Origin: Amoebophrya sp. A120
Lineage: Eukaryota; Protista; Dinoflagellata
Direction: 5' to 3'
DNA: 64,000 bases
NCBI GenBank assembly: GCA_905178155.1
Contig: CAJINV010000004.1
Location: 9,524,625-9,588,624, forward strand
Positions within the stretch are counted from its first letter, which is position 1, and every line of letters begins with the position of its first letter. The position numbers and the translations under genes are program-made. The notes under the pieces were generated by a model that was not told the origin of the DNA, did not search any database, and saw only the letters and a program-made list of their open reading frames with translations. Positions 26,044 to 63,555 of this stretch are shown here, piece after piece.

Positions 26044-29000
26044 ATGATGGGCCTCAGTGAGCCCGGTGGCGGCTCCAATAGCTCCACCGCGGACAAGTAC
26101 GACCCGATAGACACGTTGATGAAATGCAAGTCCACAATCCGGCAGCTCAACAGCGAATTAGAAAAGGAGAAAGCGGACCATGCGAAATTGAAGCGGGAGG
26201 TATCATTTGTAAAAACGTCCCCACCCCAGAGTCAAGATGGGAATTCTGCAACACAGATCCAGAAGTTTTGGGAGTGACGCATGACAAGTTTTTCTCTCTA
26301 CAGTAATGCGGGTTAGCAAGGGCAACCGCATCATAAAACCAGCCTGGTATCCTGTTTACAGCATCACAAAGTGCATTACACGATTGAAAATGTCTCTCAT
26401 TGGGATACGCATTACAAGCATTCCTGTAATTGTAATTCTGCCTGACAACTCTGAGGTGGGGACGTTTTTACACAGGATAGGAGGCTACCATCGTCGGCAA
26501 GGAGCTCGTGGAATTGAAGGGAAAGGTGGCCACGTTGGAAAACGAGAAAGAAAAATGGCGAGGGACGTACTTATTTGATTTCTCGTGCATGTCATGCTTT
26601 ATTTTCATATGCGTATCATCATCTACATCTTCCATATTCGTGCTGTGTGTGTCCATACAGGAATGTAGTTGGCTTTGTCATGCATACTCACGAAAACCGA
26701 AACCGTGTCAGGTACACCGAGCTTGAAAAGGTAAAAAACGAGCTGCAAGTCGCGAAACGCGAGTTGGCTGACACGAGGAAACAGGCGGCTGCAAATGCAC
26801 AGGGACTAGGTGGTGTGTCCTCACCCGGGGCCGGCGGCGGAGATCTGTTAAAGAAATACCAGGCGTCACAGGAAAGGGTACTGCTTACTAGTACTAGTAC
26901 TGAAACATCATGCAACTTCTCCGAAATAACGCATGCGGATCGCGCAAACAGTCTGGATAGATAAATGTCCCATCATGCAGCTACGGGAAAGTGCAAATTA
27001 ACACGCGGCAAACTAGTAATAGAACGTACACAACCGCCCAACTACCAGGTGTCCCAGCTGGAAGCGCAGAAGCAAACTTTGGAGGAGCTGTATTAAAAGA
27101 AAAAATGCGCCCACGCCGGATGCTTCAAAAATTTGTGATGCAAAGTTTCCAAATGAAAACTTTTTGTCTTGCATGAAAGGACTCTGAATCTTTCCGATGC
27201 AGAATCTAAGCGAGTAAGGCGTCTTTTACATGACAGGCTCGGCTGCTGCTGGGCTCTTACGCAACACAAGTTTTAGCTTTCCGCATTGTGATGCTGATAT
27301 ATGCAAGACAGGGAATGTTTCTAGTGGAAAGGTTTGCAAGACAAACTTGCCAAATTATGTGGTAGGGGCATGTTTTATTGTAATAAGCTGAAGGACCGGC
27401 TTTTGGAGGACGTAAAATACTTGGAGGATCGCAGTGCGCAGTACGATATCCTGTGCAAAAGTATCGTACTCGTATTGCAATCATGCATTACAAGTTTTTT
27501 CCTTAGGGTAAATCCGCATTACAAATGTCATTTCTCATGCTGAGAAATTTGTAATGCATTTATACGAATACGATACTTTTGCAGTTCATATACGAACTCA
27601 CCGTAAACCCCATCGTGAATCGGCAAAAGCAGGCAATATTGCAGCTCGAAGAGAGAATACAACAGTTAGAAGAGCACTGCCATCAAGTGGAGGGGAGACG
27701 TATTGATTTATGCTGTTGAGCTAGTATCGCTTTCGTTTTTACATCGGGAAGTTTACAAAGCATGAGCAAGCTCCTACTACTTGTTTATGTTTCCGCCCCG
27801 AATTATATCAAACAGTCCAACACGAGCGCGAAACACTTCGTGATTACTACGAGCAAGAGATTTTAGACCTCCGCGAAGACTACGAGCACCGCAAGCAGAA
27901 ACTCCAGCTGGAACACGATGACCACAAGCAAAACCTCGAGGAGGAAAAGCAGCGGAAGCACAAGGAGTGCGAGGAGCAGGTGCTTGCCGTCGTATCAAAT
28001 GCAAAAATGTTTCGGCCTGGAAAAGTCGGGGTTTGTCATGTACATTTTGCATGACCCGTGACGTCTGTGATGCAAACCCTAGCATCACAGATTTTTCAAG
28101 AGCTTCTTGATGCTTACCACGCATGAGAAACGCCCTCTCCGCGTGCCAAGAACTGGATTTCTCTTGCTGCTCATGCAACACAGCTATTTTTAGAATCCGC
28201 AGACAGCATTACAAGTTCCACTCTACTTCCAGACCCAGCCATTTTTGCATTTGATACGTCGAGCGGTTGTACGAGAAGGCGCGGGAGGAGTATGCATTGC
28301 AAAAGCACTTCACTAGCAGAAATCGCATGACAAATTCGCTCAGCATGAGAACTGGAATTTGTAATGCGGATTTACCTTCAGAATAAGACTTGTGATGCAT
28401 CAAAAACGAGATTAGTGCTAGTGCGGTACTTTTGCAACGCATAGAGAGCACGGCAAGCTGAAAGAGGAGCACCACGACAGCCACGCGGAGAAGGACCGGC
28501 ACATAGCGGATTTGGAGAACAAACATCTAAACGAAAAGCACGAGTTGCATAAGGAGAAGGAGTCCATAAAAAGCGACCTGCTCAACGCCGAGCAGAAACT
28601 GCAGCAGGCCAACGAAGCGCTGTCCATCCGCACCAAGCTGCACGACGCGAAGCACGAGGAATCGGTGCGATTGTCGCAGCACGTGGAGCATTTGGAGGGA
28701 AAGCACGAGGAGAAGGTGAATGCGATCACGTGCTTGCAAGGGGAGAAGAAGGAATTGAACAAGCGGATTGAGGTACGTATAGCACTGGTAGGTGGAGGTG
28801 CGTGTTGATCTTGATGAAATTTTTGATCGAAGAACAGAGATCTTTTCATTTGATTCGATACGCTGTTCTTACGTCTGCGAGGAACAGCGTTAGAATCAAT
28901 TCTGCTACCTCTCTACATCACAGCTCTTGGAGCGTTTGAACGAGAAGCACGAGCGCAGTAGTAAGACGGTGGTCAGGCAATTGGAAGCGGAGGTGCTCCA

Positions 29001-29679
29001 GTTAAAAACGAGTCTCGAGAAGTCGGAGCAGAAAAACGACGAGGGCAGAAGGCTTCTCTACGACCACCACAAGCTCCAGATGCAGCACAAAGAGCTCACC
29101 GCGTTGCTCGACCAAGTCAGAAAAGACACGCAGGACAAGTACGAAAACGTGATCACGAAGCTCTCCCAGCAAAACACGAAGTTGAAGCGGGAAAGTGCAA
29201 CTTTAGCCGCGAATTTGAATCATCATCTGGTCGACCGCGATATTGTCGGCGGAAGCAATCAGTATTCCTCGCCCGGAAAAAGGAGGTCGTCCTCCAGTAG
29301 GTACAACGATGATTACTACACGCCGAGCAACTACGACAGGAACTACAATGCGAATGATTTTTTGGCAGAGAAATCCAACCCGCGGTCAAGCAAAAGCCTG
29401 CGGAACCCGAGGGTAGTGGATTTAGAGCCCAGTAGCGGAATGAATAATGGAAACTCTTCCTCCGAACAGGACCAACACGTGGTGATCATAAAGCGCTCGC
29501 CCAAGGGCTCGAAGCGCTCATCTACCACAACGAGCGGTCGGGCTTTCAACTCGCCAGCAATGCCAGCTGCGGGACAACGGGAGGGACGGTCGTCGGGGAC
29601 GAGTCGAGGTAGTAGAGTGGTCTTGTCCGATGATCCCCTGTACCGAGCCGACCACTACTTTCGACCGATCGGCAGGTGA
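26044..29679 (+). CDS. Coiled-coil protein (multi-exon, 5 introners)
   Basis: E/K/L/Q-rich heptad-like exons from MMGLSEPGG to the last exon 28927-29679. Confidence 0.75.
26201..26479. mobile_element. Introner, family G
   Basis: TATCATTTGTAAAAACGTCCCCACCCCAGAGT...ACTCTGAGGTGGGGACGTTTTTACACAGGATA; DR GGAGG. Confidence 0.9.
27091..27385. mobile_element. Introner (aged TIR)
   Basis: TATTAAAAGAAAAAATGCGCCC...GGGGCATGTTTTATTGTAATA; DR AGCTG. Confidence 0.8.
27447..27590. mobile_element. Introner, family A (reverse orientation)
   Basis: TATCCTGTGCAAAAGTATCGTACTCGTA...TACGAATACGATACTTTTGCAGTTCATA; DR TACGA. Confidence 0.9.
27993..28256. mobile_element. Introner, family E
   Basis: TATCAAATGCAAAAATG...TTCCAGACCCAGCCATTTTTGCATTTGATA; DR CGTCG. 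Confidence 0.9.
28291..28443. mobile_element. Introner, family A (aged)
   Basis: TATGCATTGCAAAAG...CTTTTGCAACGCATA; diverged DR AGGAG/GAGAG; frame restored (REE|HGK). Confidence 0.8.
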
Positions 29680-30476
29680 TTTTCGGTTGTTCGAGGTGGG
29701 GCTTTGCAGAAATTGTTGCCTGCTGTTTGCACCGAAATTAAAGAGTATCTTGAGTAACGTAAACTGAACAGTACCTGTTAGCACATTTCTTTGGTGGAAC
29801 ACACACTTTGAATCAGAGTCGACCGTCGAGTGCCATTCTTTGTTTTCAATCTTTCGTACAGTTTCAAGCAACAAACTTTCTCAAAAAACTAAATACCAAG
29901 TAAGCACAATCACACCGATGACCACTTGTAAATGATTTGTCTTTGTCGCCGTCTTATGTACAATATTGGTGCGCTGTTAGAGCATGTGACTGTACAATGC
30001 AACATGAAAATGTTCCTAAAAAAACACGAATTGATCTGACTTTTCTGTAACTGTATGTCGTTTGGAAGCTCGCGCGAAGCTCTAACCTGAGTCATCTACT
30101 CCCCATGCCTGCAGCTTTGGCAAAACGAGACCACGATAATGGTTCAACTTGTTATTTCTCGTTTAATAGGAGTTTCGTTTTTTCGTTCTTTTCTGAACGG
30201 ATTAAGATAAAAAAGTAGCCGCATCTTCGTTATTGAGTTTGAAACAAGAACTACGGAGTGCAAGTTTGTTTTCGGTGGATCGACGCGAATTAGAACAGAC
30301 ACGGATGAAGATGTGTGATCGAGATCTGCCCCGCCACTCCTACGGCGTGCAGCCACGTGCATGACAGAGAATCCAAACAAAACAGTTCTGCAACTTGCTG
30401 GTAGCACAGGCGTCTGAACCAGCCTGCTATTCTTGTTTTGCGAACTCAATGTCGCATCAACTAAAACGACTGCAAA

Positions 30477-33400
30477 ATGTCCGCCTTGAGCCAAAAGCCA
30501 ACACCCGTTGATGAGACTCGGACTACACTCGCTTCGTCCACGAAGGACAGCACTTTGAATCCGGATTACACCGCGGAGCATTTCAATTTCCAACCAGACC
30601 GACTAGGCGTCGGATTCCAACCCGCCGACCGCTCCTCCCTGACTGCCCGTGAGTCTTTGGATAACATTTCCGCGATTCCCTTCTCCCCGCCTGGGTCAGC
30701 GAGAAGCAGCGGAGGGCCTGGAGTGGGATTAAACTCAAGCGCGGAACGACGCGGTGGCGATCATACCAGTGGCCCACTAATGTTTGCGCCGATGGCCGGT
30801 GCAGCCGGCAGTTGCGCAACCGGCGCGACAGCAGCGTGTACGGATGCCGTGGCGGGAGCCGCTGCGACACTGTTCCAGACATCGAATGGCGTCGTGAGAG
30901 ATAATAATAGTGCAACAGGAACTGATTTTCATCATCCTGCAAACCCTGGCGGTGCTACGTCCTCATCGTCGTTTCCGCGGCCTCGCGACGTAATCACCAC
31001 CCCAGTTACGACGACCGCTAACAACTCCGCATTTTACAACCCGCAGTATTCGCGCGGGAGCGGTGACAGAGGAAATAATAACCTGATGTTCAGCGCAAAT
31101 AGGTATAACGAGCCCGCAACCTCCTCCTCCAGCAGCGTTCGCCGGGCGGGGGCGAGAAGTGGCGGAATGACTACTTTTGGTGGTAGTACCGGTGGTCCCT
31201 CTCCTATCGCCAGTCTGAATTATGCGCGATCGCCTCTGGACGGAGGGGGCGGTGGAGGTACTATATCAACTGTAAAAATGTCTGGGTCTGGAAGAATCCA
31301 ACTTGTCATGCTAAATCTGAAGCATGCAAAAATCTGTGTTGCATGATTGCCAAAAGTCGCCCAGTTTTGACCAAATCGGGAGGCAGTTTCTCATGCAGGA
31401 TAGGCATGAGAAAGATCGCACAGAATCTGTCATGCTAGGCCCTGCATTCCAGACCTCATGGGTCATGGAAAAGCTGCATGACAAGTCGCGCACTCTTCCA
31501 GACCCAGACATTTTTACATTTGATATACTACAGCAGGCAGCCATCTACTTGCACATCAATCGGGTGACAACAACTTCAATTTGCAGCATCTGAACACTTC
31601 AACGACGTCTTCTTTCCTGAACCGCAGCGTTTTCAACACCAGCATAGCCGTCGGCTCCCCCGGAAGCACCGATATCCTGTGCAAAAGTATCGTACTCGTA
31701 GGAATTCTTGCAATCATGCATTACAAATTTTTTTGTGAAGCTAAATCCGCATTACAAATTTTATTTCTCATGCTGGGGAAATTTGTAATGCATCTATACG
31801 AGTACGATACTTTTGTAGTGCATAACCGATGCGGTGTTGCAAAAATGCCGAGATACGCTCGAGCTGCAGGCGAGAGAACTGGAACGAGAGAGGAACGAGA
31901 AATTGGAAGCAAGAAAACAGAAGAATGAGGCGGAAGCGGCGCTGCAACAGGAGAAATCCGCGCACCAATTGCTGCGCGCTCGGTACTATGAACTGCAAAA
32001 GTATCGTACTCGTATAAATGCATGGCAAATTTTCTCAGCATGAGAAATAAAATTTGTAATGCGTATTTGACTTAACAAAAAGACTTGTGATGCATGATTG
32101 CAATACGAATACGATACTTTTGCAATGCATAAATACGCAGAATCGGAAAACACGGATAACGTGCAGCGGAAACACTACGAAAGCCTCAGAATGGAAATCC
32201 TTAAAGTGGAAATGATTTGTGATGCATGAAATGCACGGCAAAAAAGACTGTATTGCAGAGGACACAATGAAGACCGACTATTGTCCTGCTAGGGGTTCTT
32301 TCAGAATTGGGCTGCTGATTAGCACGAGAGAAGTGCACCCCTTTGCCTACCTAGCATGACAGACATGCAGCTTCGAGTGCCCGACTAGAAATGGCGCTTC
32401 AACTGGAGTCGTTTTTTTGCATTACCACTTTGCGGATTTCCGATCTGAGGCTTTCATAAACACTACGAGGAGCAAATAAACAGCCTGGAAAAGAAACTTG
32501 ATCTTGCGCGGAAGGAACAGCAGCAGACCAGCACGCAGCTGACGTTGAACTCCACAGAGTTGAGCTCTTTGCGCGGCGTAGAGGAAAGACACCAGAAGAC
32601 GCAAGCGCAGCAGGCAGTTTTGCAGGCGAAGATCGAGACGCTGCTGCGGGAGAAAGAGGATTTGCAGGAAAACTCGCAGAAGCTGCAGCTGGAAGTGTAT
32701 GTGGATATTGTGCTTTTAGAGTGGTTTCGCTTTTCCTCGTGTTGCGAAGATGAGCTGTGTTTTTTGTCTGCATATACCATAGATCAACTTGTTGTCTCTT
32801 GTTCACACATGCAGCATACAAAACATCAAAGCCTCTAAAAATATTTCAACCTCAGTACCTCCCTCGAGCACAAGTTGACACAAGTCGGCTTTGAAGCGAG
32901 TCAATACGAGGGGCGTTGCGACGATATCCTGTGCAAAAGTATCGTACTCGTATTGCAATCATGCATCACGAATCTTTCTCTTAAGGTAAATCAGCATTAC
33001 AAATTTTATCCCTCATGCTGAGGAAATTTGTAATGCATTTATACGAGTACGATTGTTCTACTTTTGCAATTCATAGACGAGAAGACGCAGCGACTGCAGC
33101 AAACGGAAGAAACGCTCGCGCGGACGCGATCGAGAATAAGTATTTTGGAGCAGCAGGTGCAGATGGAACGGGAACGGACGCAGATGCTGGAGGACAAAAG
33201 GGAGAAAGAGTTACTACAGATGAAGGAGGAGCTCCGGTTGGACTACGAACAGAAAATCCGGTCGGCGGAGGTGGAAAAATCGCATCTCATGGAGGCCAAG
33301 GAGGAAGTATCAAATGCAAAAATGTCTGGGAGATTTGTCATGCAGTTTTTCCAAGCGCCCCCACGTCTGGAATGCAGGGCCTAGCATCACGGGCTCTGCA

Positions 33401-35745
33401 GCTCCTTGGTAATGCGTATTCTGCATGAGAAATGCCCTCTCAGCATGGCCAGAAGTGGGCACCTTTTGCACGTTATGCATCACAGAGCTTTGTAGGATCC
33501 GCAACAAGCATCACAAGTTCGAATCCTTCCAGACCCAGACATATTTGCATTTGATAGGAAGCCCGGAAGCACGATTTGGAAGCCGCCACGGAAAAAGGGC
33601 ACCGTATCCTGTGCAAAAGTATCGTACTCGTAGTAATTGCAGTTATGCATTACAAATCTCTTTCTTAAGGCAAATCCGCATTACAAATTTAATTTGTAAT
33701 GCTGACCCAATTTGTATTGCAATTTATACTAATACGATACTTTTGCAATCCATACACCGCGTGGAGAAACAACTACTGCTCAGGATCAAGGTATCAATGA
33801 GAATGACGCTTCGGACGTGTTTTTCATGCCGATGCCGGTAGGTTTTCCTTTTCTGCATTGTTTTTGCGCAATAAATATTGCTCGTCTGTCATGCTCAACA
33901 ACCTTTCCCGCTACACGAATTCTGTATTCAAAACCACTTTGCTCACCAGGACCTCGAACTCCAGCTGGACCACTCCAACCGCGACCGTGCCCGCCTCGAG
34001 GAAAGCTTCCGCAACCACGGGAGCCAGGCGCAAACCAAAATCGAGCAGACATCGCAGGAACTGAATGAAATTGCGAGGCACTACGAGGTTTTGCAGCACG
34101 CGCATACCGAGTTGAAAAAGCAGTTTTCGGAGAACCAGAAGTCTCGTTCCGAAGACGTCACACAGCTGCAGCAATCGTTGCACGACGTCACCGCGAAGCT
34201 GCACACCTTGGAGGAAGAAAAACGGCACATGGCGATGCGTGAGCAGGAACTGCAGAGGCACCACTTGGTGGAGCTCGACATGCGGGGGCAGGAACAGCAC
34301 CGCCTGCAGAAGGTGATCGACGAGCGGAGAGTCGAGTATGAGGAAAATTTGAAGAAGATCGAAGAGTCCAGCGAGATCATCCGGAAGGAGCTCCAGTCCA
34401 AGTGCGGGGAATTGGACCAAACGCGGCACCAACTGACCGAGGTCGAGAAGGGAAAGGACTTGCTCGTGGTCGACGAATCGCGGGCGCGGTGGGATCTGGA
34501 ACGGAAATGCGAGAACTTGACCGAGCAGTTCGCAAACAAAGAAAAGGAAATGCAGGTAGAAGTACTAGGGCATTCTCTTGAAAAAGGGCAGCGGCTCTGT
34601 TTTTATGGGTGGATGATTTTTGTGGCGATAGCCAGTGAAGTGATGAAAGTTCTTGCAACGACAACAAAATAGCTCAATCACACTACGCCCTTCAGGTCAC
34701 TATCGAGGGTCTGAAGGTTCGCTGGGACGTTGAGCGCTCGGAGCTCCGTCAATTTTACGAGCGGAAGATCGACTCCTTGCAACAGAAAGTGCAAGATTTG
34801 CGCACCGAGTCGACGGAAGTCCGGAAGATGATCGTCGGCGCGGCCGCAGACTTGTACAATTCCTACTCTTCGGATTTGAATCAACTGACGTCCACCGCTG
34901 GCGGTGGTGCAACTGGAACTGCCGCGCAGAATAGCAATCTCCCTCCGGGTGGAGCAGGTGTTGTTCCGCAGCATCTCGTCTCACAATCGCAAGTAAGAGG
35001 GAAAAATAATTCTCGACCAGTACCAGCCTCTCCCTCCACTCCCTCCGACGCGCCGACGCAGCCACAGGTACAACTCATGAGCGGAACAGCGGGCCCTTTA
35101 TCTAGTAACGCGACGAGCTCCAGAGGAGCAACTGCTGGTGGTGTTCCGCCGCTAGCAGGAGAAGTCAGAGGTGGTGCAAATAGCTTTTACCAAGAGCCTC
35201 CCCGCAACGAGGACCAAATAAGGAGTGACCAGATGCGAGTCGTGTTTCGTGGTCCCGGGAGCAGTAGTTCCTCTTCGGCGGGTGGTCGTTATAACCAGCA
35301 GCAAAGGACGGACCATCGACAGCAGCCGCAGCAAGACGACAACTACCGTCATGACATCAATCGCAGTAGACAAGATCACGAAGTACCCAACCAGCGAACC
35401 CAGCGTCCGGAAGTCCTCGCGCAGCCAGCAAACACCCGGCACGAGAGGTTACTCTCGGGTGACAGCGTTGCTTCCTATCAACAGCAGCAGCAGCAGTCCA
35501 GCATCGTCCCCGAGCACTGGCGCCGGTCAGTCGAGATGGCCGCGGGTGGAAGTGATCGACGACATCAAATAAACTACAAGCACATGTTGACGGCTGAAGA
35601 AGCGGAATCAGCAAGACAGAGTGCGGAGTCAGCGAAGTTTAAGTCGATGTTTGACCAGAACGATCAGGCTTTTCAGGAGCGGTTTCAAAAAATCGTGGAC
35701 GACAATGCGTATTTGATGGTCAATCATCCGCAGCGAACAAGATGA
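30477..35745 (+). CDS. Large protein with low-complexity termini and central coiled coil (7 introners)
   Basis: ORF segments 30477-31263, E/Q/K-rich exons 31830-34555 and last exon to 35745, joined across elements and GT-AG introns. Confidence 0.75.
31264..31525. mobile_element. Introner, family E (reverse orientation)
   Basis: TATCAACTGTAAAAATGTCTGGGTCTGGAAGA...TCTTCCAGACCCAGACATTTTTACATTTGATA; DR TACTA. Confidence 0.9.
31673..31824. mobile_element. Introner, family A (reverse orientation)
   Basis: TATCCTGTGCAAAAGTATCG...CGATACTTTTGTAGTGCATA; DR ACCGA. Confidence 0.9.
31987..32131. mobile_element. Introner, family A
   Basis: TATGAACTGCAAAAGTATCG...CGATACTTTTGCAATGCATA; DR GGTAC/AATAC. Confidence 0.85.
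32176..32458. mobile_element. Introner / non-canonical intron
   Basis: TACGAAAGCCTCAGAATGGAAATCC...GGATTTCCGATCTGAGGCTTTCATA; DR AACAC; joins RKH|YEEQ. Confidence 0.85.
32925..33075. mobile_element. Introner, family A (reverse orientation)
   Basis: TATCCTGTGCAAAAGTA...TACTTTTGCAATTCATA; DR GACGA. Confidence 0.9.
33308..33556. mobile_element. Introner, family E
   Basis: TATCAAATGCAAAAATGTCTGGG...CCCAGACATATTTGCATTTGATA; DR GGAAG. Confidence 0.9.
33605..33754. mobile_element. Introner, family A (reverse orientation)
   Basis: TATCCTGTGCAAAAGTATCG...CGATACTTTTGCAATCCATA; DR CACCG. Confidence 0.9.
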
Positions 35746-36328
35746 CAGCACAGCTGCTTTTTCGCAAATAACGGTTTTTTTGAACTGCTCCAATAAACCG
35801 GAACTTTTTCTTGCCCTTTTTGCTCACGTGCATAGAGACCACGTCCGTGTGACAGACTCGCCTGTATGTTGTACGAGACCTCTTTTAGTTCTTAAGAACC
35901 ACTCCCCACGACTGCGTCGCGGGGCAAGGCTGATTTGAATTGCTGCTGGGCCAAATTTGAAGCTATTGTCTGCAGGTGCTTTCTGAGTGGTTAGTGAAAA
36001 CAGGAACAGGTAGTCATAGTGGACGTCGTCCGCGCCCTGTCTCACTAACCAAGCTCCAGGCAGCAGTCACTTAAATGCCAACATGAAGCAAAAAAGAGAA
36101 AAAGAAAATCCGACTTCTCGTCCAGGGCAGGGCATTTACCACAGGCGAAAAAATGCCTTTCAGATGCAGAGAGCAGCACAGACCCAGGCCTCTGCAAGGA
36201 ATGTTGTAAACGCAGGCGCCATGTGCTTTGTTGTGATGCGCGACACAAACAGCAGCAGCGCCTTGTAGGCGAGCAGGAAGACAGCGCGCGCCAGCGCTTG
36301 TCGGAATGTTTGACGTTTTAGCAGACTA

Positions 36329-36839
36329 GCTGCAGACTCTTCAGAAGCTTTTGAGTCTTCAGAAGAAGCTACAGAAGATGACCTCCAGAAGGTCGAAGCT
36401 TCTGAAGAATACGAAAAAGCGCAAGCATAAAGTTGCCGCATTGGAGAAAGATTTGAAAAACCTTCTGAAAATTTTCAGTCTTCTGAAGGTTGGCCAAAAT
36501 CGCGACACTTTGCAGCTTTCTTTTGTCGAAAAAGTCGGGAAGTCTTCTGAAGGTCAAAAAAATGCGACCTTCTGAAGCTTTTTAACCTTCAGAAGATTTC
36601 AAAACGGTCATTTTTCACCTTCTGAAGGTTTTTTTGCTCATTTTCCATTTTTTTCTTCTGAAGGTCAAAAAAAACCTTCTGAAGGCGTGACCTTCAGAAG
36701 AAAAAAACGCTCACGGTTAAACCGATGGTATGCTTGCTCAAAAAAACGAGGCTTTTTTCCATTTCTTCTGAAGGTTTCACTGATGATTTTGGACCTTCAG
36801 AAGACCTTCAGAAGAAAAAGCTTCTGAAGGTTCAGCAGC
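36329..36839. repeat. Intergenic array of palindromic CTTCWGAAG motifs with imperfect inverted ends
   Basis: About 15 exact CTTCAGAAG/CTTCTGAAG copies plus variants. Ends GCTGCAGACTCTTCAGAAGCTTT / AAAGCTTCTGAAGGTTCAGCAGC. Confidence 0.7.
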
Positions 36840-37149
36840 AATTTTGAGGAGCCTTCTCCTTATAGTTATTAGATTAAATTCATGATAAAACCGTTTCGAT
36901 TCCAGTACAACTCAGCTGTTCCAGGAACACGGAGCTGATGTCGTGTGTTCGTGTGCAAGTTTGAACGTAACATTCGGATCTTCGTATTAGCTACGGTCCC
37001 ACGAAAATGAGCTCAACCATTTCGATTTCGTAAACAAGCGCTGCTCGTCCGATTATACATCCGCGATCCAAGACCCAAAACGGCAACCAAGAAGATCTCC
37101 ATCTCCCACCGAGTTCCCCGCACATCGCTAACGCTACCGTCCACCACCT

Positions 37150-37395
37150 ATGGTCCTGAACGGTCTATTGGTTTGCGCCGTGTGTGCGGGTGGCGCCTAC
37201 GTGAATCGGGACCAACTGCGCCCGTACTGGGACCGGTTTGTGGGTTTGTGGCTGGCGCAGAACGACGGGTGCCTGCACATGCTCGTGCAGTGTGTGGACA
37301 AGGCGGGCGAGAAGTTTGAGCAGATGACCGGCGTGAATCTCGGCCGCGACGACTTGCCGCCGCCACAACGCACGGTTGCGAGGAACGCTTCCTAG
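37150..37395 (+). CDS. Small hypothetical protein with hydrophobic N-terminus
   Basis: 81-aa ATG ORF with coding-like GC3; MVLNGLLVCAVCAGGAY. Confidence 0.55.
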   Translation: MVLNGLLVCAVCAGGAYVNRDQLRPYWDRFVGLWLAQNDGCLHMLVQCVDKAGEKFEQMTGVNLGRDDLPPPQRTVARNAS

Positions 37396-37532
37396 GACAA
37401 TGACATCAAGGACATCGACATGCTGTACTAGTTGCAGGAGAAAATAAGACGAGCTAGCACAGTTTGTTTTTTTTTCGCGCCGTCGAAGCTCTTCTTCATT
37501 CTGCGGGCCGTGTAGCGGAAACGAAAATAAAA

Positions 37533-40500
37533 ATGCGTGGTGTTTTCCGCTTCATTTTGAAGCGCCGTCGCTGTGCGATTGCATCCCTCGTTCTCGTCTC
37601 CGCCGTCGGGGCCGTTTCAATCGACGAAGGGGGCAGCATCGAATCCCAGGTCCTCGCGTTTTCAACGGAGATTCGCGATCGGCTGTTGTTGACAACAACG
37701 AACGAAGACGAAAACGAACGCGATGAAGATGACATCGTGGCGGGACAACCACGACGAGGAGGTTCACCAGCCAACCGGATGAAAAATCGACACCTGACCG
37801 AAGCCTCCCTCGAGTTTCTCCTCTCCTACTGCCACGAGCCTTTGCAAGGCCCCGGACTCCCGGAGGATTTCTCCTCCCGGTTTTCGCAGTGGCAACCGCG
37901 GTACATGCGGGATTCGTTGAAATGGGCCCGGCATTTCGAATCTCTGTTCCACGACAACAATTTGTACGCGCAGGTGCACAAGTGCCCGGGTTTGGTGCTG
38001 GACCTGATGATGAACACGGTTTTGCAGCAAGATCACGACATCAACCGCAATGCGGCGCAATACCGCTATCAGACCATCATAGACACGTCGAGGAGCTTGG
38101 TCAAGATGGGCGCGCAGGCGGCGGCGGGGCTGGTCAGGAATTTGAAGCAAGAACTTCAGGAGCGGGGAGCAGACGAGGACAGTGCGGCTCTTGCTGAAAA
38201 TAACGCAATTCAGATTCTGGAAACCTCGCTGGCGTCCCTTGCAGCAGAGCTGCAGCGACCAGTCACGGAGTTTAGTATTCTTGAAGTAGAGAATGAGAAC
38301 GCAGAGGGCACAAGAAAGGCGCAAAGAAAAGACGACCGCGAGGACGAAGAACCTCTCCACGTCCAAATAGAGCGTCTGACGAGCGGGTGGCTTGCGAAGA
38401 CTATCCGGGAGAAGTGGCGCGGCATGGACATTGCCAGGACGTATCCTACCCTGCTTGGAATAGAAAGCTTTCCCAGCCAACGACAGCAAGTGGGGGCAGA
38501 GAGGACTGGTTCTTCTTCTTCGGCGAGGACCACCCAAGTGACGCAAAAATCCTCCTGTCTGGGACAGAAATTCTTTGTTTACCCGCTGCACCAGATCTTC
38601 AGTACTCTCTCCGTTCTGAAATGCGCGTTCACGCAGTGGGGCACGGAAGTGCTGTTCCATCGCTATCTCGAGGAGTCTATGAATTGCAAAAGTATCGTAC
38701 TCGTATAAATGCATTACAAATTTCCTCAGCATGAGAAATAAAATCTGTAATGCAGATTTGCCTTGGGGACAAGATTTGTAATGCAGGACTTGCATTTATA
38801 CGAGTACGATACTTTTGCACAGGATAGAGTCGGAGTGTCGCGTCTCAGACCCGGACCTCGCAGACTGGTTTTTCGTGCCCATGTACTCGACCTGTTTGTT
38901 ATCAAAAGGAAAAATCCCCCCTCCCCATATCGAAAACGAAATTTGTGTTGCTGTATTTAAGTACACAAATCACATTTGTCTTGCAGTAAAGGACTGCACG
39001 CAGATCGTAAGCCTAAGGAGTGGCCTCTTGGTGTAGGGGCCTAGCATGGCAAACGTCTGCACTATAGGCCTTGCAGCATTACAAATCGCCCGCATATCGT
39101 GGCGGAGTCGCTGAGTTTGCCCTCTTGCACGAGAGACAGGATTTGTGGCCACAAATCAGCATCACAAATTTTTAGAAACATACCTTTTCAGTATGGGGAG
39201 GGGGGATTTTTCCTTTTGATATTTGTACGCCCCACTATGGCCCGAGCACGAGAAGAGGTTGGAAGCGGACGCAGACTACGCAAAACAGAGCGAAGAAGAA
39301 GCGCAGCAATGTGTCCTGGACGAGATTCGCGTGCGCGCAAGCACCGTACCCTCCTTGTCGTGGGCAGATTCCGAGAAGCGGGAGAAGATGGAACAGTGTG
39401 TTTTGCAAGAAGAGGGGTTTGGTACAACCAAGTCCACCTTGAAGATGCCAACATCAGAAACAGTGGTTGAGGCTGCAGGTGGGTCCAGTCAAGAGTTCGA
39501 AACAGAAAGCGCCACCGAATTCACGGAGCTTGTAGTTAAAGATACCGGTAGTGCGTGGGCAGCTGCACAAGAACCGTCGAGTTCTTCTGAGAAAGACCAA
39601 CATGGCGAGGACGTAAACCTGGACGGCTTGGGGTGGGACAGCGAGCAGATCGCTGGGTCGCTGTACGACGGAGATGTTCATTTTGAAGAGCAGGCGGCAA
39701 CTGTCATGTCTTCAACAGCTGCAAGAGCAGCCCAATCACCTCCAAAAGAACCCTTGGTCTCAACTGCTGCAACAGCCACGCCAACAGCTCCTGAGATGTT
39801 GCAAGTCTCACGAACAACAGATACTGCTTCTCTTGAAGATGCTGAACAGAGGAAAGTGACGTCTAACGCCACCTGCGGCTACCACGACTTGGACAACATT
39901 GCCAACCGGGAAATTTTCCAGCCCGCCATCCGCGACCAACTGTTTTTCAACTCAAAACACTACAACCGGAACCGCGGCACGGACCACATTTTTCTCTTCG
40001 CGGACGGACAAGGGCCGCGGTTGTTTGCGAACTTTCAGTTGCTGCAAAACTCGATTTTCCTCTCGGTCGAAGCTACTTGTCCCACCTGGGGAATCCGTCC
40101 GCACCTGCACAACGAGATGGACGTGTATGACTGCTTACAAACCACCTACAAGGACATCGTGATCCCCGGGCTAGTCACCTACGACCGGTCGGTTGGTTTG
40201 GCGAAAACCAATTTTCCGTCCGAGCAGCGCGACGCTTTGGTCATCTTCCACGGCCGACACCCGGAGAAAGCGCTGTCGCACCGGATGGCGAAGGTGCGGG
40301 GACACGTTTTGGACTTCTTCGAAAACCTTCCGGACGCCGACGTCTCCTCGGGCTTCGTAGAGAACTATTTCGAGCGGAAGGGGAGCGCGCACTTTTGTTT
40401 GATCCCGGGCGGGAGCTCACCCTGGACCGTACATTTATACGAAAGCTTCTTCGCCGGCTGCATCCCGGTGATCTTATCGGACGAGTACCAGGTGGCGTGG

Positions 40501-41130
40501 AAAACGGAGCTACCCTGGGAGGAGTTCTCGGTGAAGTGGCCGGAGAAGCCAGAACTACTGCCGGACTTGTATCGGTATTTGAAAAAAATTGTCGTAGAAA
40601 AGAAGCATCTGAGAATGAAATCCGCAGTCGACCGCGTCCGTTGCTGGTTCGACTACTTCTCGGAGGATCCGGACTGCAGCCCGTGGGCGATGTTTCAGCG
40701 GAAACTGAAGAAGCGGCTGCTTGTGAGGAGGTTGGAGGAGGAGACGCCGGCTGTGGTGTTTGGCAGTGGGGGTGAGGAAGATCAAGATGCGCATTATTTG
40801 GAGGTTCAGCAAGAGCCGGAAGCAGTAGCAAGAGAAAGTCTACTTTCACTTCTTGGCCAACTGGTCGAGCAGGAGTCGAACCCGCAAGGTGGACAAATCG
40901 CTATTCCGACAGCAAGTACTCCTGCTCATCGTCGTCCCGTTCGATACTGGTCGACGGGAGGACAAAGTGGCCGTGGAGACGCTGGTGCAGGTGCGGCTGA
41001 AGACCAGTCGACCGTTTCTTCAACATCTTTCGACTTCGTCCATTACGACCGACACTCGCGGTATCACACCACGGATCAAGAGTTGAATCTGGGACCGAAA
41101 AGGACTTTTGATTTGTTGCAGCGACCGTGA
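37533..41130 (+). CDS. Exostosin-family (GT47) glycosyltransferase
   Basis: KFFVYPL..QWGTEVLFHRYLEES|ECRVSDPDLADWFFVPMYSTCL|Y.., RNRGTDHIFLF, KDIVIPG, FCLIPGGSSPWTVHLYESFFAGCIPVILSD; N-terminal signal/anchor. Confidence 0.9.
38678..38826. mobile_element. Introner, family A
   Basis: TATGAATTGCAAAAGTATCGTACTCGTATAAATGCA...TGCATTTATACGAGTACGATACTTTTGCACAGGATA; DR GAGTC; splits a conserved GT47 motif. Confidence 0.92.
38900..39221. mobile_element. Introner, family F
   Basis: TATCAAAAGGAAAAATCCCCCCTCCCCATA...TATGGGGAGGGGGGATTTTTCCTTTTGATA; DR TTTGT. Confidence 0.92.
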
Positions 41131-41680: not shown

Positions 41681-44600
41681 ATGGTGCGGCGCTTCGTCTT
41701 CGGCGTGCTGACCGCGAGCATTTGCGGTCGAGTGGTCGACGCGAAGTGGCTTTTCGACTACCTCAGCGATGAGGAAGTGGGGAGCATTGCCAACAGTACA
41801 GACGATGTAAAGACAGATGCGGTGCACAGTGTTGACAATGAAGCTTTTTATTATGCAAGCTGCGCATGATCCATACGAAAACAAAAACAAAATCAAAATG
41901 CAAATACTATACCCCAGGTCTCCCGAACATCGACATCGCCTCCCAGCAGCCGGACGTCGATGCTGAGGTGGATGACTGGGCGCCCGGAAAATCAGTCGAC
42001 GATCCGCACCCTATCTTCCTCACACCCGACCTCAGCAGCATCGTCACCACCACAGCACCTGTACTACAACCCGCTGCGCAACAACCGGCCACCACCACCA
42101 CCGCCCCCTCGCTGGAGGAAGAGGAGAACTTAGGCCCCGCGGCCGCGAAAGCAAAGGCCCTCGAGCGGATGAAAAACAAGAGGGAAAAACCGCAGATTCA
42201 GTGTGACCTAGCGACCGAGGTGATCTTGTCTCTCGGGAACGCGCGCTTGACGGAGGCTGTGATGCGAGACAGCCTGGGCAGCGAAGATCCGTGCGTCCTG
42301 GAAACCATTCGCGCCGGGCGGGTGCAGCAAATATCGGTACCTAGGAGCCTGCGGTTCCAGGTTGGGATGCTGGGAAGCAACTCGACAGCTGAAGTCGGGA
42401 ACAGCAGCTCCGGATTGAGCCTGAATAGCAGCATCGCGTTAATGTTTCTGCAGGAGGTGGGAGGAGAAGATCAAGTTCAAGACGAGGATCACGACCAAGC
42501 GCAATCTGCATCTGCGTTTCCTTTCCAGGACCCGAATAAGGTGAAACCCTTGCAGCATAAGCCCGCCGAGACAAAACCCACGCCCGAAAAGCCTACTGCG
42601 AAAGGGCCGGAGAACCAGCCGGCGTTTGCCAGGACCATTCCCGTCGGGGGGCCCGCGGCTCGGTTCCGGACCAGACTGCCGTTTCAACAGGTGAGGGTGA
42701 TTTCGATTTGCTTTTGCGAGTAGGAAACTAAATCATGTTGTCGTTGTCCACTATTTGCGGTTGCCCGATAATAGACCTGTTTTCGTTTTCCTCCACGTAC
42801 TTATAATCTTCTACAACTATCACTAGTATGTCAAAGACCCAAACTTCTATCAGGTCCTGAACGCGTTCTGGCTAAATTCCAATCCTTTCGGCCAGACCAC
42901 GGACAGTGTGTGTGCCATCTACCCGTCCAGCCGCGAGCAGGTGAAAATAGCGAAGCAAACGACAGAGATGGTCCGCCAGGTTTTCGAAGAAGACGCCAGA
43001 ACGCCTTCGCAGCTGCGGTTTCTTCTGCCCGGTGGCGAGGAGAATAACGTGAACGCCATGCTGCCCGCGGAACGCGAGCAGGCGAAAAATGCGGCGTTGG
43101 AGGAGCAAATGGTGTCAGCACTGGCGAAATCGAAAATCAGTAGTACTAGCAAGATGACAAGCTCTAGTACAGCAACAGCAGGGATGAAAACAGCTACATC
43201 AACAAACAAATTCGATCCAGCGAAGCCGTACACGCAGCAGGATTTAAAAAAAGTCCTGCACAACGTCGCGGACAAGTCGGGTGACGCCTCGGTGAAGCTG
43301 ATACGCATTGCAAAAGTATCGCACTAGTATAAATTGCATTACAAATTGCGCCAAGAACAAAATTGGAATTTGTAATGCTGATTCAGGTTGGGAAAAATAT
43401 TCGTCATGCTTTAGTGCAATTTATACGAGTGCGATAGCTTTTGCACAGCATAGCTGAAAAACGGGAACAAAAACGCGATATCCACGAAGGAGGGTATGAA
43501 GGAGTACGATAAGGAGCGAAAGGAGAAAGCTTTCTACGAGGCGGGGCTGACCCCCACCGGGGCATCGACAGTTTCGCCCCCTAGTACTTCCGCGACGGAT
43601 GTTGGGATAAAAGTTGGAGGCGCAGCTGCAGCTTCTGATCCACTTCTGGATTATTTCAACACGCCGGGGGGAGGATCAAGATCAACTTCATCTTCTGGTT
43701 ATCCTGTGCAAAAGTATCGTACTCGTTGTAGTAATCGCAGTTATGCATTAGAAATCTAGTTGGTTAGGTAAATCCGCATTACAAATTTAATTTGTAATGC
43801 TGAGCCAATTTGTATTGCGATTTGTCCTAGTGCGAAACTTTTGCAGTGCATACTGGTACGATCCCTAGATCCGCTCCTCCTCTCGGCTACAATCTAATGA
43901 CGGCCTCGGTGCAGGACGGTTTCAGCTACGACCCCCCGATATGCATTGCAAAAGTATCGCACTAGTATAACTAGCATCACAAATTCACTCAGCATTAGAA
44001 ATGGAATTTGTAATGTGGATTCCACCAAAGAAAGGGATTTGTAATGCACGACAGCGATTAGTACGAGTACGATACTTTTGCACAGGATACCTGACTTTGG
44101 TTTTCACCGAAGCACCTCTGCAAGAGCAAGACTTCCGCGGGCAAAGTATGGGACAACTCTCAAGCGTTACATTCTCGACTGTTACATGAATTTGCCACGT
44201 AAAATTGGCAGCTTCGCAGGACAAGTTCTCGACGCGCTAGATAGCACTTTAATCTACTCCAAATTCATGTAACAGTTGAGAATGTAACACTTGAGAACTC
44301 CATACAAACGGCGACGGACTACACGAAATCGATGCAAATGGTGCGGTTGGTGCATTCGCGGGGAAAGATCACGACAAGTCTGTGGAACGAGGAGAACATC
44401 CGGAAATTTCTATCAGAAGGAAAAATCCCCCCTCCCTATATCGAAAACGATGCTTGTGATGCTGTATTGGAGTACACAAATCAGATTTGTCTTGCAGTAG
44501 AGGACTGCAGGACCATGCCACGCCATGCCAATGTAGAGAGGTCTTGGCCTAGGCACTTAGCATGAGGAACGGCTATGCTGTAGGCCCAACAGCATTACAA

Positions 44601-47375
44601 ACCATCTGCGTAATGGGTCGGAGCCTATGCCGTTGCTTTCTTGCAAGACAGACGCGATTTGTGGTCACAAATCCGCATCGCAAATTCCCTGAGGCGTACC
44701 TTTTCAATATGGGGATGGGAGATTTTTCCTTCCGATAATTTCAGAATTTGCTGACCGGCACGACGAAGATCGCCCCGCCGATCCCGGTGGGCACCGCAAC
44801 GAAAAATTACATGGGTGTGGACGACGACGATGTAGCAGTTCATGCTGCGGAAAATAAAGACAAGGTCCCAGCATCAAAACCGAAAACAAGCTTGAACCCG
44901 ATCAGCTTGCTGTCCATGGCTATCAAATGTAAAAATGTCTGGGTCTGGAAGATTCCAAGATTTGTCATGCAGTTTGTCCAAGCTCCACCAAGTCTGGAAC
45001 GCAGGGCCTAGCATCACAGGTTCTGCAGCCCCTTGGTGATGCCCATTGTGCATGAGAAATGCCCTCTCAGCATGGCGAGAAATGGGGACCTTTTGCAAGC
45101 CATGCAACACAGATTTTTGTATGATCCGCAACACGCATCACAAGTTCGCACTCTTCCAGACCCAGACATTTTTGCATTTGATAATCGCGCTGCAACATCA
45201 AAAGTCGGGGCGGACCCCCGGGAGAAGAAGTACAGCTACATCTAGCAGAACGAATATCAAAGCGTCTTCTTTCATCTCAACAGCCACCACGTCGTTCGCC
45301 GTTGCACCACGAGCAGGAACAACATCAAAGCGGACGGCTGCAGAGAGCAGCGTAGCAACATCATTCCTGCAGATAGGTGAAGATGTGGTCGACGATCACA
45401 AAATGATGATGAACATGCTGGATAGGAACAGTGAGAAGAACGACCTCGCTGTGCTGCACCAGGAAAGGCACCATGATGGTCACGCTCACCACCACACCCA
45501 CAAGCATCTGCACGATGGTCAACACCGGAACGAAAAACAAAAAGAGCACCATCACCACCACCACCATCAGAGCCATCATCACCACAAGGATCCCTTGGGT
45601 CTGGTCGAGGCTGCAACTTCAGCCTCGTCTAGAATTACTCCGGCTCCTGTGGAGGAACAGCGAAAAGAAAGGCATGCGAACTACAAGCACAAAAGCTCCT
45701 TCGGGAAGGAGAAGACAAATCTTCGTCATCTCTTCGAGAGCGAGACGAGTACCAACCGGCTGAAGACGCACCACGGTACTTCTAATAAGAACGTCAGCTT
45801 GAAAATGATGAAAACGAAGAGTCCGGCAGGACGACAGTCACACGACCGAAATAGTTTTCAGTACTTGCAACTCTTCTCCGACAAAAGACCTTCCCCGGCA
45901 GGCGGCGTGGGGGCATCTCGTGGGGGCCAAAACGATGCAAATTTTGCCATCGGCAAACTTCGGCAGCCATCGTCCTCGATAATATCCGCGTGGTATCGGC
46001 ACGCGCACGGGAAAGGGGATGGAGCGGATGGTGAAGCGGGCCCGGAAAAATCGCGAGAGCAACTACAGCAGCTAGAGTTGCAAACTGCACCCCCTTCCTC
46101 ACAACAACATGGGCCGCGGCTCACATCTTCAACTACAGAATTGCTGGAGCGGGGGACGACGAGTGCAGCTCAGGCAGCGAAACTTCATAGGGAGCGAAAG
46201 ATGATGCAGACGGAGAAAAACGACAATGTGCAGCTGCAGAAGAACGAGCAAACTCATCTGCAAATACCGGCAACCACCGCCGGAAAAGAAGCCGAGCACG
46301 TGGCTCAGGCCGCGGGGGTGGTAGCTGCGGCGCAACACAAAACTGCACAAACAGCCGAAACCGACGAGGCCACAGCCGGTGGATCATCCGGAAGTACTAG
46401 TAGTGTCGTTAACCAAAGATCTCCCGAGGGGGCCGCGATCTCTGCCGCGACGTCTAGTGCGTATGCGTCTTCCGGTGCAGGATCGACTGCTGGAGGGAAA
46501 ACGGAGAAACAGGACCCCTCCGTTTTCGATGACTCAGAAGTTGCTGCAGCGATCAAAGAAGCGCAAGTCGGAGGTCAAGCGACTACTACAGCAGGGCCTG
46601 TTTCTGCGGACGGAGTTGCCAGAGCGAAGAACAAGGAGGAGGACTTGCGGGGAAAGCATGAGAGGCAAACCTGGGGTAATAAAACGTTCAGCATATAATT
46701 GCATGTTTGAGATTGTCGTGATGTTGCGAGAAGTCCTGCGAGCCTGAGATGTGCTGCAGTTGATTTTTTGGGAAAAATGCACGTGCTACTAGTAGTACGC
46801 TCCTTCTTCTAGAGTTGTCTAAATGAGCAATCACACAAAAAAACACACCTCAGCGTCCGAGTGGGTCCCTCTCATCGCCGGTATCGCGGTGCTCGTCGAG
46901 ATTGTCGCGCTGCTCTGCTTATGAACTGCAAAAGTATCGGACTCGTATAAATGCATTGCGAATTTTCTTAGCATGAGAAATAGAATTTGTAATGCTGATT
47001 TGCCTTGACAAAGGAATTTGTAATGCAAGACCTGCATTTATACGAGTGCGATACTTTTGCGCAGGATACTGCTGCGAAACGAATTTAGACACCTACGACC
47101 GCTCCCACTACTACCACAACTACTACTCCGACACTGATCGGTCTTCGCAAATCTCCACGCACTTAGCCGCGTCCTCCGCGAGAGGACGGTCTTCTTGCGC
47201 CAGCGGAACCGGGACCTCGCAGGATGAGGGGCCGGCGACGAGTATTTCCGCAACCCGGCAAGAGTGGACCACCAGGGTGCTGCTGCAGCATCAACTACAG
47301 GGAGGAACTACGCGGGAGAGCAATTTTCACAATCTGTACGAAGAGACCCGGAAAGCGAGCAGTAAATCGAAGTGA
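41681..47375 (+). CDS. Large secreted/membrane protein: signal peptide, His-rich tract, C-terminal TM (7 introners)
   Basis: MVRRFVFGVLTASICGRVVDA; HHHHHHHQSHHHH tract ~45470-45590; WVPLIAGIAVLVEIVALLC|C. Single-gene interpretation is inferred. Confidence 0.65.
43302..43452. mobile_element. Introner, family A
   Basis: TACGCATTGCAAAAGTATCGCAC...GTGCGATAGCTTTTGCACAGCATA; DR GCTGA. Confidence 0.88.
43700..43852. mobile_element. Introner, family A (reverse orientation)
   Basis: TATCCTGTGCAAAAG...CTTTTGCAGTGCATA; DR CTGGT. Confidence 0.9.
43940..44089. mobile_element. Introner, family A
   Basis: TATGCATTGCAAAAGTATCG...CGATACTTTTGCACAGGATA; DR CCCGA/CCTGA. Confidence 0.88.
44147..44304. mobile_element. 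Introner, family C
   Basis: TATGGGACAACTCTCAAGCGTTACATTCTC...GAGAATGTAACACTTGAGAACTCCATA; DR CAAAG/CAAAC. Confidence 0.85.
44411..44737. mobile_element. Introner, family F
   Basis: TATCAGAAGGAAAAATCCCC...GGGAGATTTTTCCTTCCGATA; DR ATTTC; homologous to 38900-39221. Confidence 0.9.
44921..45183. mobile_element. Introner, family E
   Basis: TATCAAATGTAAAAATGTCTGGGTCTGGAAGA...TCTTCCAGACCCAGACATTTTTGCATTTGATA; DR ATGGC/ATCGC. Confidence 0.88.
46920..47068. mobile_element. Introner, family A
   Basis: TATGAACTGCAAAAGTATCG...CGATACTTTTGCGCAGGATA; DR CTGCT. Confidence 0.9.
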
Positions 47376-63455: not shown

Positions 63456-63555
63456 CTTGCTCTATTGGGGGGGGGATATCGCAAGGTGTACTCGTGTTCC
63501 GTGTTCTTGGGGTGCATGCAAGAAGTGGCTTACTGTATACGGAGGCTCATAACTC

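Follow-up and report, generated by a model that had tools for sequence, protein, structure and literature searches.

Introners of Amoebophrya sp. A120 occupy exons in either orientation at approximately equal frequency. Their removal very probably takes place at the RNA level and is defined by the inverted ends of the elements. We analysed a 64-kb window (the whole stretch of DNA given here), a second, related assembly, and contigs that are likely to represent RNA. Public proteins identical to those encoded in the window carry the label Amoebophrya sp. A120.

A sequence-only reading of the window had claimed that the reverse complement of 27447..27590 aligns with 38678..38826. Global alignment bore this out, with 130 of 149 columns identical; unreversed, the same pair still shared 109 of 159 columns on the forward strand because of the element's own inverted ends. 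Using blastn, we recovered all ten family A and all five family E copies in the orientations assigned by that reading. Family A copies are forward at 17941..18082, 31987..32131 (imperfect direct repeat), 38678..38826 (the reference copy), 46920..47068 and 48155..48307, and reverse at 27447..27590, 31673..31824, 32925..33075, 33605..33754 and 43700..43852. Family E copies are forward at 27993..28256, 33308..33556 (reference copy) and 44921..45183, and reverse at 31264..31525 and 58436..59183, the last being enlarged by a 13-nt tandem array. Four further family A copies, all forward, were found at 16449..16593 (also recovered by a scan for TIRs and direct repeats), 28291..28443, 43302..43452 and 43940..44089, giving blastn totals of nine forward and five reverse copies for family A and three and two for family E. 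The scan returned 36 candidates in the window, a few of them spurious, compared with 2–8 in five shuffled sequences. Elements of other families lie at 27091..27385, 32176..32458 and 44147..44304, and family F elements at 38900..39221 and 44411..44737.

All host genes had been placed on the plus strand. This held at every site where it could be tested, based on GT..AG introns in the same contigs, long plus-strand ORFs regained on removal of the elements (an ORF also places the host of 17941), and Pfam hits; for the hosts of 46920 and 48155 the strand is that of a plausible plus-strand ORF. It is unproven for the family E element at 58436, where a plus-strand frame is open across the junction, yet the strand model leaves the copy uncalled and a host gene is not established.

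Removal in both orientations, as predicted by the sequence-only reading, was borne out by contigs X1–X4, whose RNA status was guessed by a tool and of which the element-skipping ones represent one sample. Among the 15 joints listed of 53, the reverse family A copies at 27447 (joint 27441>27591, in X1 and X2 contigs) and 43700 (43694>43853) were skipped. The same contigs skipped forward copies of family A at 28291, 43302 (43295>43452) and 43940 (43937>44093) and of family E at 27993 (27987>28257) and 44921 (44918>45187), again among the 15 of 53 joints listed; the label 'between: not known' applies to most joints, and those listed include no reverse family E joint. The elements at 27091 (27085>27386), 44147 (44141>44305) and 44411 (44404>44737) were skipped as well, and at least four GT..AG introns were also missing from the element-skipping contigs (15 of 53 joints listed). 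Each element was lost from the spliced contigs together with one copy of its repeat. Record 3 of X1 contains 68 letters between 38672 and 39222, which exactly matches the expected removal of both 38678..38826 and 38900..39221 (the latter also indicated by the TIR/repeat scan and by ORF restoration) from a plus-strand gene with an Exostosin GT47 domain (37533..41130; Pfam and ORF). The share of words was 0.60–0.64 in X1–X4 (0.63 expected for spliced transcripts) and 0.87 in X5/X6 (0.82 expected without elements), and both values were set aside as evidence. In X8 and X9, two raw-read runs of 2026, matches were limited to short element-like stretches with foreign flanks.

Removal is also required by a plus-strand gene of 1127 amino acids at 30477..35745, whose model is identical to the public protein P0004. 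This gene carries seven introners (four reverse, two forward and the element of another family at 32176..32458, found by the TIR/repeat scan) in addition to three GT-AG introns. Keeping any single element truncated the ORF, and all seven copies are already handled as introns in P0004. The intron status of the copies at 31264, 31673, 31987, 32925, 33308 and 33605 is that of this ORF and protein model rather than of a directly observed joint. A second public protein, P0001, was reproduced by none of the junction pairs tried and thus gives no register information.

In the second assembly we found 354 elements, of which 236 received a strand call and 174 of these a family. Host strand was taken from a codon model which, applied to the window, called 22 of 31 elements, all plus; 127 of 385 elements were left out for want of a strand call, with dropped loci below 1 kb numbering 59 of 141. 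Relative to the host, family A was forward in 55 and reverse in 49 cases (p 0.62) and family E in 9 and 17, and both orientations occurred in all 11 families with at least four copies. Adjacent family A pairs were split evenly (15 same, 15 opposite). Nearest neighbours agreed in orientation in 65 of 115 comparisons, close to the 57.7±6.2 of shuffled data, so orientation is not inherited. Spread by reverse splicing, which would leave orientation-fixed lineages, was looked for among these 115 nearest neighbours and no such lineage was found.

It is likely that these small elements with inverted repeats were spread as DNA transposons. A single 5-mer at 54056..54060 on the plus strand, within a PNP_UDP_1 coding region, occurs twice in the orthologous locus L080, once on either side of a reverse family A element, and comparison with this empty site identifies a 5-nt target duplication. 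The elements thus show the traits of MITEs or non-autonomous TIR DNA transposons, namely TIRs, a target duplication of fixed length and an orientation reset with each insertion. No cognate transposase is reported in A120 (Farhat et al. 2021, PMC7789003).

We then examined the ends of 258 copies. TAT occupied positions 1–3 in 97–100% and A positions 11–13 in 89–97% of copies in both arms, figures to be read in view of the scan itself, which demanded A-rich positions 11–16 and, at one end, TAT. The resulting consensus, TAT-S-N6-AAA, is identical at both ends in either orientation. The 5-nt direct repeat was perfect in 27 of the 31 elements in the window, including 27447, and had the base composition of the flanking exon. 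A register permitting GT or GC donors with AG was present in 20 of 258 copies (24±5 by chance). In no register was G in excess at the first position or AG at the last ones, and AG acceptors were at background in registers 2–5. Given the exon-like composition of the repeat and the chance level of GT/GC..AG, canonical ends confer no advantage. None of the ten element joints observed (among the 15 of 53 listed) permits GT..AG or GC..AG, and CTRAY occurred in the last 45 nt of one of 59 forward and one of 53 reverse family A copies. Neither orientation thus showed a GT/AG register or a CTRAY branch motif of its own, a finding that would have spoken against a shared signal.

Motifs of other splicing systems were equally scarce. 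The U12-type 5' site (RTATCCTT) was approximated by RTATCCT in only 37 of 258 copies, in register 4 and at one end type; minor snRNAs are reported absent in A120 (PMC7789003). The Euglena signature (N3CDG / CHG N5-6 | R) was found in 0 of 258 copies in all six registers, and Rfam gave no match within 27000–39500. With motif definitions taken from general knowledge, CNG|CNG at both cuts, as for IRE1, was found in 0 of 258 copies, and a BHB-like central helix in 2 of 258 in register 3 and 0 of 258 in register 4, as expected by chance, and in 10 of 258 in register 5 (3.5±1.9 expected). The proposal of a tRNA- or IRE1-type signal thus failed in registers 3 and 4, and recognition of this kind is largely refuted at the motif level.

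The position of the cut is bounded by four joints at imperfect repeats, all in plus-strand hosts. The left repeat copy gives positions 1–2 at 28291 and position 3 at 43940 and 44921, and the right copy gives position 5 at 44147, which puts the cut right after position 3 or position 4 of the repeat. Among 53 single-mismatch repeats the mismatch positions were flat (8, 14, 9, 10 and 12) and did not locate the cut. With the cut after position 4, the intron would have U at +2 followed by A at +3, matching the canonical GUA.

The removal signal had been proposed to be symmetric. This is true of the end consensus, which is the same either way, but not of arm conservation, which follows the direction of host transcription. 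Over positions 8–24, the arm on the 5' side of the host differed from the family consensus by 0.95 and the 3' arm by 1.65 positions on average, and the cleaner arm was 5' in 117 and 3' in 48 of 221 copies (p 1e-7). The test kept 221 of 258 copies, excluding families with fewer than four copies and arms with more than six differences; when the latter were readmitted the counts were 125 and 54 of 237. The polarity was present on both record strands and disappeared (80 vs 85) once host strand was ignored. It was repeated in the non-A families, which the search pattern had not selected for (58 vs 25 of 112); family E had none (1.5 vs 1.36 differences), and the window alone gave 13 vs 7 of 26 (p 0.12). 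A sense-strand A>G mutation bias was rejected as its cause (interior A>G 3.3%, T>C 4.6%). The polarity points to a directional reading at the RNA level and argues against DNA excision.

Folding, which the sequence-only reading had suggested as a check, predicted a hairpin joining the ends in both orientations (z −6.9 for the reverse copy at 27447 and −8.9 for the forward copy at 38678), as any inverted-repeat transposon folds. Watson-Crick pairing at positions 4–7 occurred in 35–58% of copies. Over positions 8–20, G-U and A-C mismatches numbered 99 and 108 overall, and a wobble excess after correction for polarity was marginal (p 0.10 and 0.04). An excess of G-U over A-C was rejected as a sign of pairing: it was seen at position 21 of family A (34 vs 5), whereas the other families showed the opposite (33 vs 53, positions 15–20), and this reversal led us to reread the signal as arm polarity.

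We propose that a DNA transposon would insert into an exon in random orientation with a 5-nt target duplication. In the pre-mRNA, the two ends of the element would pair, and the hairpin would juxtapose the exon ends. Cuts would be placed by distance from the element ends without GT/AG, presumably 1–2 nt before the stem on the 5' side and 3–4 nt after it on the 3' side, so that both halves would rebuild one repeat. Because mirror-image ends would be read alike either way, orientation would not matter; the responsible factor, however, may read the first-transcribed arm more strictly than the second. Such a route would be euglenid-like and distinct from GT-AG splicing. On balance we lean towards a separate, non-GT-AG route of this type. 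The stronger form is more tentative: Amoebophrya might, independently of euglenids, have acquired another way to splice mRNA without the spliceosome, with a factor that docks on the first-transcribed hairpin arm and cuts at fixed distances on either side whatever the sequence, so that an insertion of these families anywhere in an exon and in either orientation would instantly be a perfect intron. A ligase of the RtcB/Trl1 type may follow some other nuclease, and is counted under the separate-route explanation.

A diverged, U1-less major spliceosome is a less probable explanation, in which the inverted repeat would offer identical 5' (N|UAU) and 3' signals either way. The branch point would be an adenosine in the terminal ATA, the 3' cut would follow at a fixed distance and the hairpin would be at most a bridge. 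A branch adenosine just 4–7 nt from the 3' cut would be unusually close, which counts against this explanation, as does the rarity of CTRAY. The directional arm conservation favours it, and a relaxed spliceosome would be served equally well by the +2 U and +3 A that register 4 yields. Moreover, A120 was found to have U2, U4, U5 and U6 and almost the full set of spliceosomal proteins, but not U1 (PMC7789003). Either-orientation spliceosomal introners are described in Polarella and Aureococcus (bioRxiv 10.1101/2020.10.14.339549), and U2 splicing of inverted-repeat, non-GT-AG introns in Fritillaria (PMC11282704; bioRxiv 10.1101/2025.08.15.670264). The idea that both orientations are beyond the reach of a polar spliceosome is therefore not supported, and inverted ends offer it the same 5' and 3' sequences either way. 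The Polarella and Fritillaria introns, however, have fixed dinucleotides, whereas our copies lack enrichment of a first G or last AG, and an orientation bias is noted for Polarella classes 6, 8 and 10.

Two further explanations are far less probable. Excision of the DNA before transcription, IES-like or by a transposase, would let transcripts copy an element-free template. We consider it improbable, even though symmetric ends, unbiased orientation and the exact loss of one direct repeat agree with it and the four bounded joints also fit a crossover near the repeat centre. The elements stay in place in two genomic assemblies, and a strand-symmetric reaction would not predict arm conservation that follows host transcription. 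To our knowledge, dinoflagellates have no separate somatic nucleus. In addition, Farhat et al. defined these introns via RNA-seq junctions on the genome (PMC7789003). The least probable explanation, and a very improbable one, is a tRNA splicing endonuclease or IRE1-type nuclease cutting at the stem base, followed by a tRNA-type ligase. Stem-joined ends, sequence-indifferent junctions and the small BHB-like excess in register 5 are in its favour; the joint-permitted registers 3 and 4 at chance, the missing CNG|CNG and the lack of an Rfam match oppose it.

In the marine parasite Amoebophrya over 60% of introns lack GT-AG, and how they are removed has yet to be settled (PMC7789003). Both the elements and a hairpin model have been published before: in the same organism, Farhat et al. 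(2021, PMC7789003) described introners with TAT + 7 nt + AAA ends, direct repeats (3–5 nt) and non-canonical junctions, like the window copies, and proposed a hairpin joining exon ends. Orientation, arm polarity and cut register are not mentioned in the accessible parts of that article's text and supplement text. Either-orientation introners are known in other organisms; what we did not find in print is the unbiased orientation, the lack of advantage for canonical dinucleotides, the stricter 5' arm and a cut that follows position 3 or 4 of the repeat. Such findings narrow the possible splicing modes, indicate the bases to target by mutation and open the question to tests on RNA-seq data already available.

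The introner-like elements (ILEs) of Polarella glacialis and Aureococcus anophagefferens likewise carry TIRs and TSDs, act as introns in either orientation and are removed precisely (Roy et al., bioRxiv 10.1101/2020.10.14.339549, which also covers Huff 2016). They differ in drawing GT/GC/GA and AG sites from the element or repeat and in an orientation bias, both of which the Amoebophrya copies lack. The introners of Fritillaria borealis are also MITE-derived, with inverted repeats and non-GT-AG ends; these ends are fixed as AG-AC and AG-AT inside the TIR, and the U2 spliceosome is implicated (PMC11282704; bioRxiv 10.1101/2025.08.15.670264). In Amoebophrya, by contrast, the direct repeat that holds the junction bases is variable. 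Ciliate IESs have transposon-like ends and are removed precisely, in either orientation, leaving one direct-repeat copy, but need a germline/soma split; the Amoebophrya elements stay in genomic assemblies and their constraint follows transcript direction. Euglenid nonconventional introns need end pairing for their splicing and leave as full-length circles rather than lariats. They remain the best analogue, as the sequence-only reading had suggested, with inverted ends that pair there and are predicted to pair in Amoebophrya, direct repeats, no GT-AG and canonical introns alongside (PMC12501133, PMC6221363, PMC11282704), a 3' overhang past the stem that is longer than the 5' one and a suspected MITE origin; the Euglena signature itself did not carry over, and the lineages are unrelated. 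Should the route in Amoebophrya lie outside the spliceosome, it would explain the tolerance of tens of thousands of exon insertions and add to the euglenids a second case, reached by convergence.

The reverse complement of 27447-27590 was identical to the reference copy of introner family A (38678-38826) at 130 of 149 alignment columns, compared with 109 of 159 for the forward strand, and every family A and family E orientation listed in the sequence-only reading was reproduced. With four further forward A copies, the window holds nine forward and five reverse A elements and three forward and two reverse E elements. Inverted ends flanked by a direct repeat were found at 36 candidate sites (2-8 in five shuffles), and a refined scan kept 31 elements, 27 with a perfect 5-nt repeat. 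A codon model on element-free sequence called the host strand for 22 of the 31, all +. The claim that all hosts are + held wherever testable; for E at 58436 no host was established. Two window exons were 100% identical to proteins labelled Amoebophrya sp. A120.

The E element at 58436-59183 is 748 nt long, expanded by a tandem array of 13-nt units that begins near 58902, and more E-like fragments lie at about 57978-58238. In all families the motif TGTNATGC, counted together with its reverse complement, recurs subterminally (12.4 per kb within elements vs 1.25 outside) and is a candidate shared protein-binding site; 250 of the 385 elements carry it in both directions.

Removal was read from joints, contig junctions that skip a genomic segment, in two contig sets, X1 and X2 (one sample, presumed RNA; region 27001-47000). 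Among the 15 joints listed, of 53, ten corresponded to elements and four to GT..AG introns; the last, a long skip whose shorter side has just 21 letters, is probably a repeat artefact. As had been proposed, both orientations were skipped, including reverse A at 27447 and 43700, forward A at 28291, 43302 and 43940, and forward E at 27993 and 44921; no reverse E junction was among these 15 of 53. By record offsets removal was exact, with 31 letters left between 27993 and 28291 and 68 letters both observed and expected for 38678/38900, and the joints restored open frames of 494 aa and 1193 aa. The middle gene (30477-35745, + strand) had no joint among the 15 listed. Its model, with three GT-AG introns and seven elements removed (four reverse, two forward, one of another family), each element together with one repeat copy, gave an 1127-aa protein identical to the public protein P0004; retaining any element or leaving an extra repeat truncated it. 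The annotation of P0004 is not independent proof of splicing. Indirectly, given removal of all seven elements, a middle-gene contig would start at ~30418, just 5' of the start codon.

A 21-nt end motif search yielded 141 loci in one public assembly, and the codon model called the host strand for 236 of 354 elements in them. Relative to the host, family A was forward in 55 and reverse in 49 copies (p 0.62) and family E in 9 and 17; both orientations occurred in every one of the 11 families that had at least four copies. Adjacent A pairs shared orientation in 15 cases and opposed it in 15. Nearest neighbours by interior sequence agreed in 65 of 115 cases, near the shuffled level (57.7±6.2), so every insertion sets its orientation anew, in the manner of a DNA transposon. 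One locus, L080, is orthologous to about 51600-56300 (82-91% identity by segment) and holds three elements where window sites are empty; one of these is a reverse A copy that lies in a PNP_UDP_1 coding region and is flanked by a perfect 5-nt duplication. An element at about 4440-4760 of L080 (empty window site 52358-52363) has a 6-nt, not 5-nt, duplication, so its removal would need different spacing.

That each orientation might use conventional signals of its own was not borne out: a GT/GC..AG register was available in 20 of 258 copies (24±5 by chance), and of the 59 forward and 53 reverse A copies a single one in each orientation had CTRAY. Direct repeats had the composition of the flanking exon. 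Four joints with imperfect repeats were informative on the cut. Positions 1-2 came from the left repeat copy at 28291, as did position 3 at 43940 and 44921, and position 5 came from the right copy at 44147; assuming a single rule, the cut falls after position 3 or 4, which would put the cut sites 1-2 nt before and 3-4 nt after the stem. Judged by reading frame, element 54295-54548, common to the window and L080, appears to agree (window right copy altered at position 2, L080 left copy at position 5).

In folding, a hairpin joined the ends in both orientations, as predicted (z -6.9, -8.9); this is expected of any such inverted-repeat transposon. The removal signal had also been held to be symmetric, which the arms do not support: in host sense the 5' arm carried 0.95 differences from the family consensus and the 3' arm 1.65 (positions 8-24). 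Among 221 copies the 5' arm was cleaner in 117 and the 3' arm in 48 (p 1e-7; 0 of 20000 locus-level sign flips reached this). The polarity was present on both record strands and was lost when host strand was ignored (80 vs 85). It held for non-A families (58 vs 25, n=112), was absent in family E, and was not significant within window elements alone (13 vs 7, p 0.12). All three substitution classes were commoner at the 3' arm, including the class that worsens pairing there (86 vs 54); G-U and A-C mismatches were equal overall, and any extra for G-U was marginal (p 0.10; 0.04 pooled). In family A the polarity was strongest among young copies, at 35 vs 5 compared with 27 vs 20 among older ones, suggesting filtering soon after insertion.

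The premise that a polar machine cannot act on both orientations is not supported: element ends read alike either way, so orientation-blindness alone does not speak against such a machine. Arm polarity favours directional recognition at the RNA level and speaks against excision of the elements from DNA, which we regard as improbable. An initial G or a terminal AG brings no advantage, which favours, less strongly, a route apart from GT-AG splicing. We lean towards a separate stem-and-ruler route, in which the inverted ends would be recognised directionally in RNA and the cuts set relative to the stem.

The same ends would present one sequence in either orientation to a relaxed, U1-less spliceosome reading N|UAU, and spliceosomal introners of either orientation have a precedent (bioRxiv 10.1101/2020.10.14.339549); with the indifference to G and AG against it, we rate this as less likely but a serious alternative. 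Recognition of tRNA/IRE1-type motifs, as had been suggested, is very improbable: bulge-helix-bulge and IRE1 motifs were at chance for cuts after repeat positions 3 and 4, and the slight central-helix excess after position 5 (10 vs 3.5±1.9) concerns a register ruled out by one joint.

A Copia-like unit at 60203-63980, flanked by an identical 48-nt direct repeat, has two - strand ORFs, 63461-62061 (467 aa, no Pfam match) and 61603-60206 (466 aa; Pol_BBD, rve, SH3_retrovirus); no reverse transcriptase ORF was seen in it. Copia-type integrases make 5-nt duplications, and such an integrase could be a mobiliser of the introners. At about 54100-54264 lies an old, degenerate A-like element common to the window and L080, where the frame in which P0001, a public protein, terminates is not the one matching relative P0003; the P0001 annotation may be wrong there. 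Two similar + strand ORFs occupy 55439-56179, whose Cys/His pattern we take to be RING-like (no Pfam confirmation), and 57201-57962. The intergenic stretch at about 36340-36840, which has low contig depth, contains numerous short CTTCTGAAG / CTTCAGAAG repeats running in either direction, a repeat other than the introners. At 2098-3696 an internal tandem duplication (about 1.1 kb spacing, 94-98% identical) overlaps ORFs, one with a weak PCO_ADO match in Pfam.

The window elements are the introner system of Farhat et al. 2021 (PMC7789003), which describes inverted repeats of TAT, seven variable bases and three or more A, 3-5 nt direct repeats and a proposed hairpin bringing exon ends together; elements and hairpin model are thus already in print. 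PMC12130899 catalogues A120 introners and reports Copia/Gypsy homology, and the method of PMC9860276 admitted opposite-orientation matches. PMC7789003 also states that 15% of A120 canonical introns have IR/DR organisation; these introns may be elements in which a GT..AG register arose by chance, as it does in about 8-9% of the elements here. For Amoebophrya, we found no statement on element orientation, on arm polarity or on the cut register in the text and one supplement file of PMC7789003 (its figures may bear on the claim), nor in the parts covered of PMC12130899, PMC9860276 (supplements of these two may bear on the claim), PMC11282704, PMC11453091, PMC12787238, PMC6221363, PMC12621601, bioRxiv 10.1101/2025.08.15.670264 and PMC8469720 (zero matches), nor in wider literature searches; Huff 2016 and subscription journals may also bear on the claim. 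To a known system we add one confirmed property and two new constraints, which make the splicing mechanism testable. Introners of Polarella and Aureococcus likewise insert in either orientation and are spliceosomal; Roy et al. (bioRxiv 10.1101/2020.10.14.339549) note an orientation bias, in contrast to the 55/49 of family A. The route apart from GT-AG splicing proposed in Euglena (PMC12501133) resembles the one favoured here; of the euglenid analogy drawn earlier, that likeness stands, whereas the Euglena signature occurred in 0 of 258 copies.
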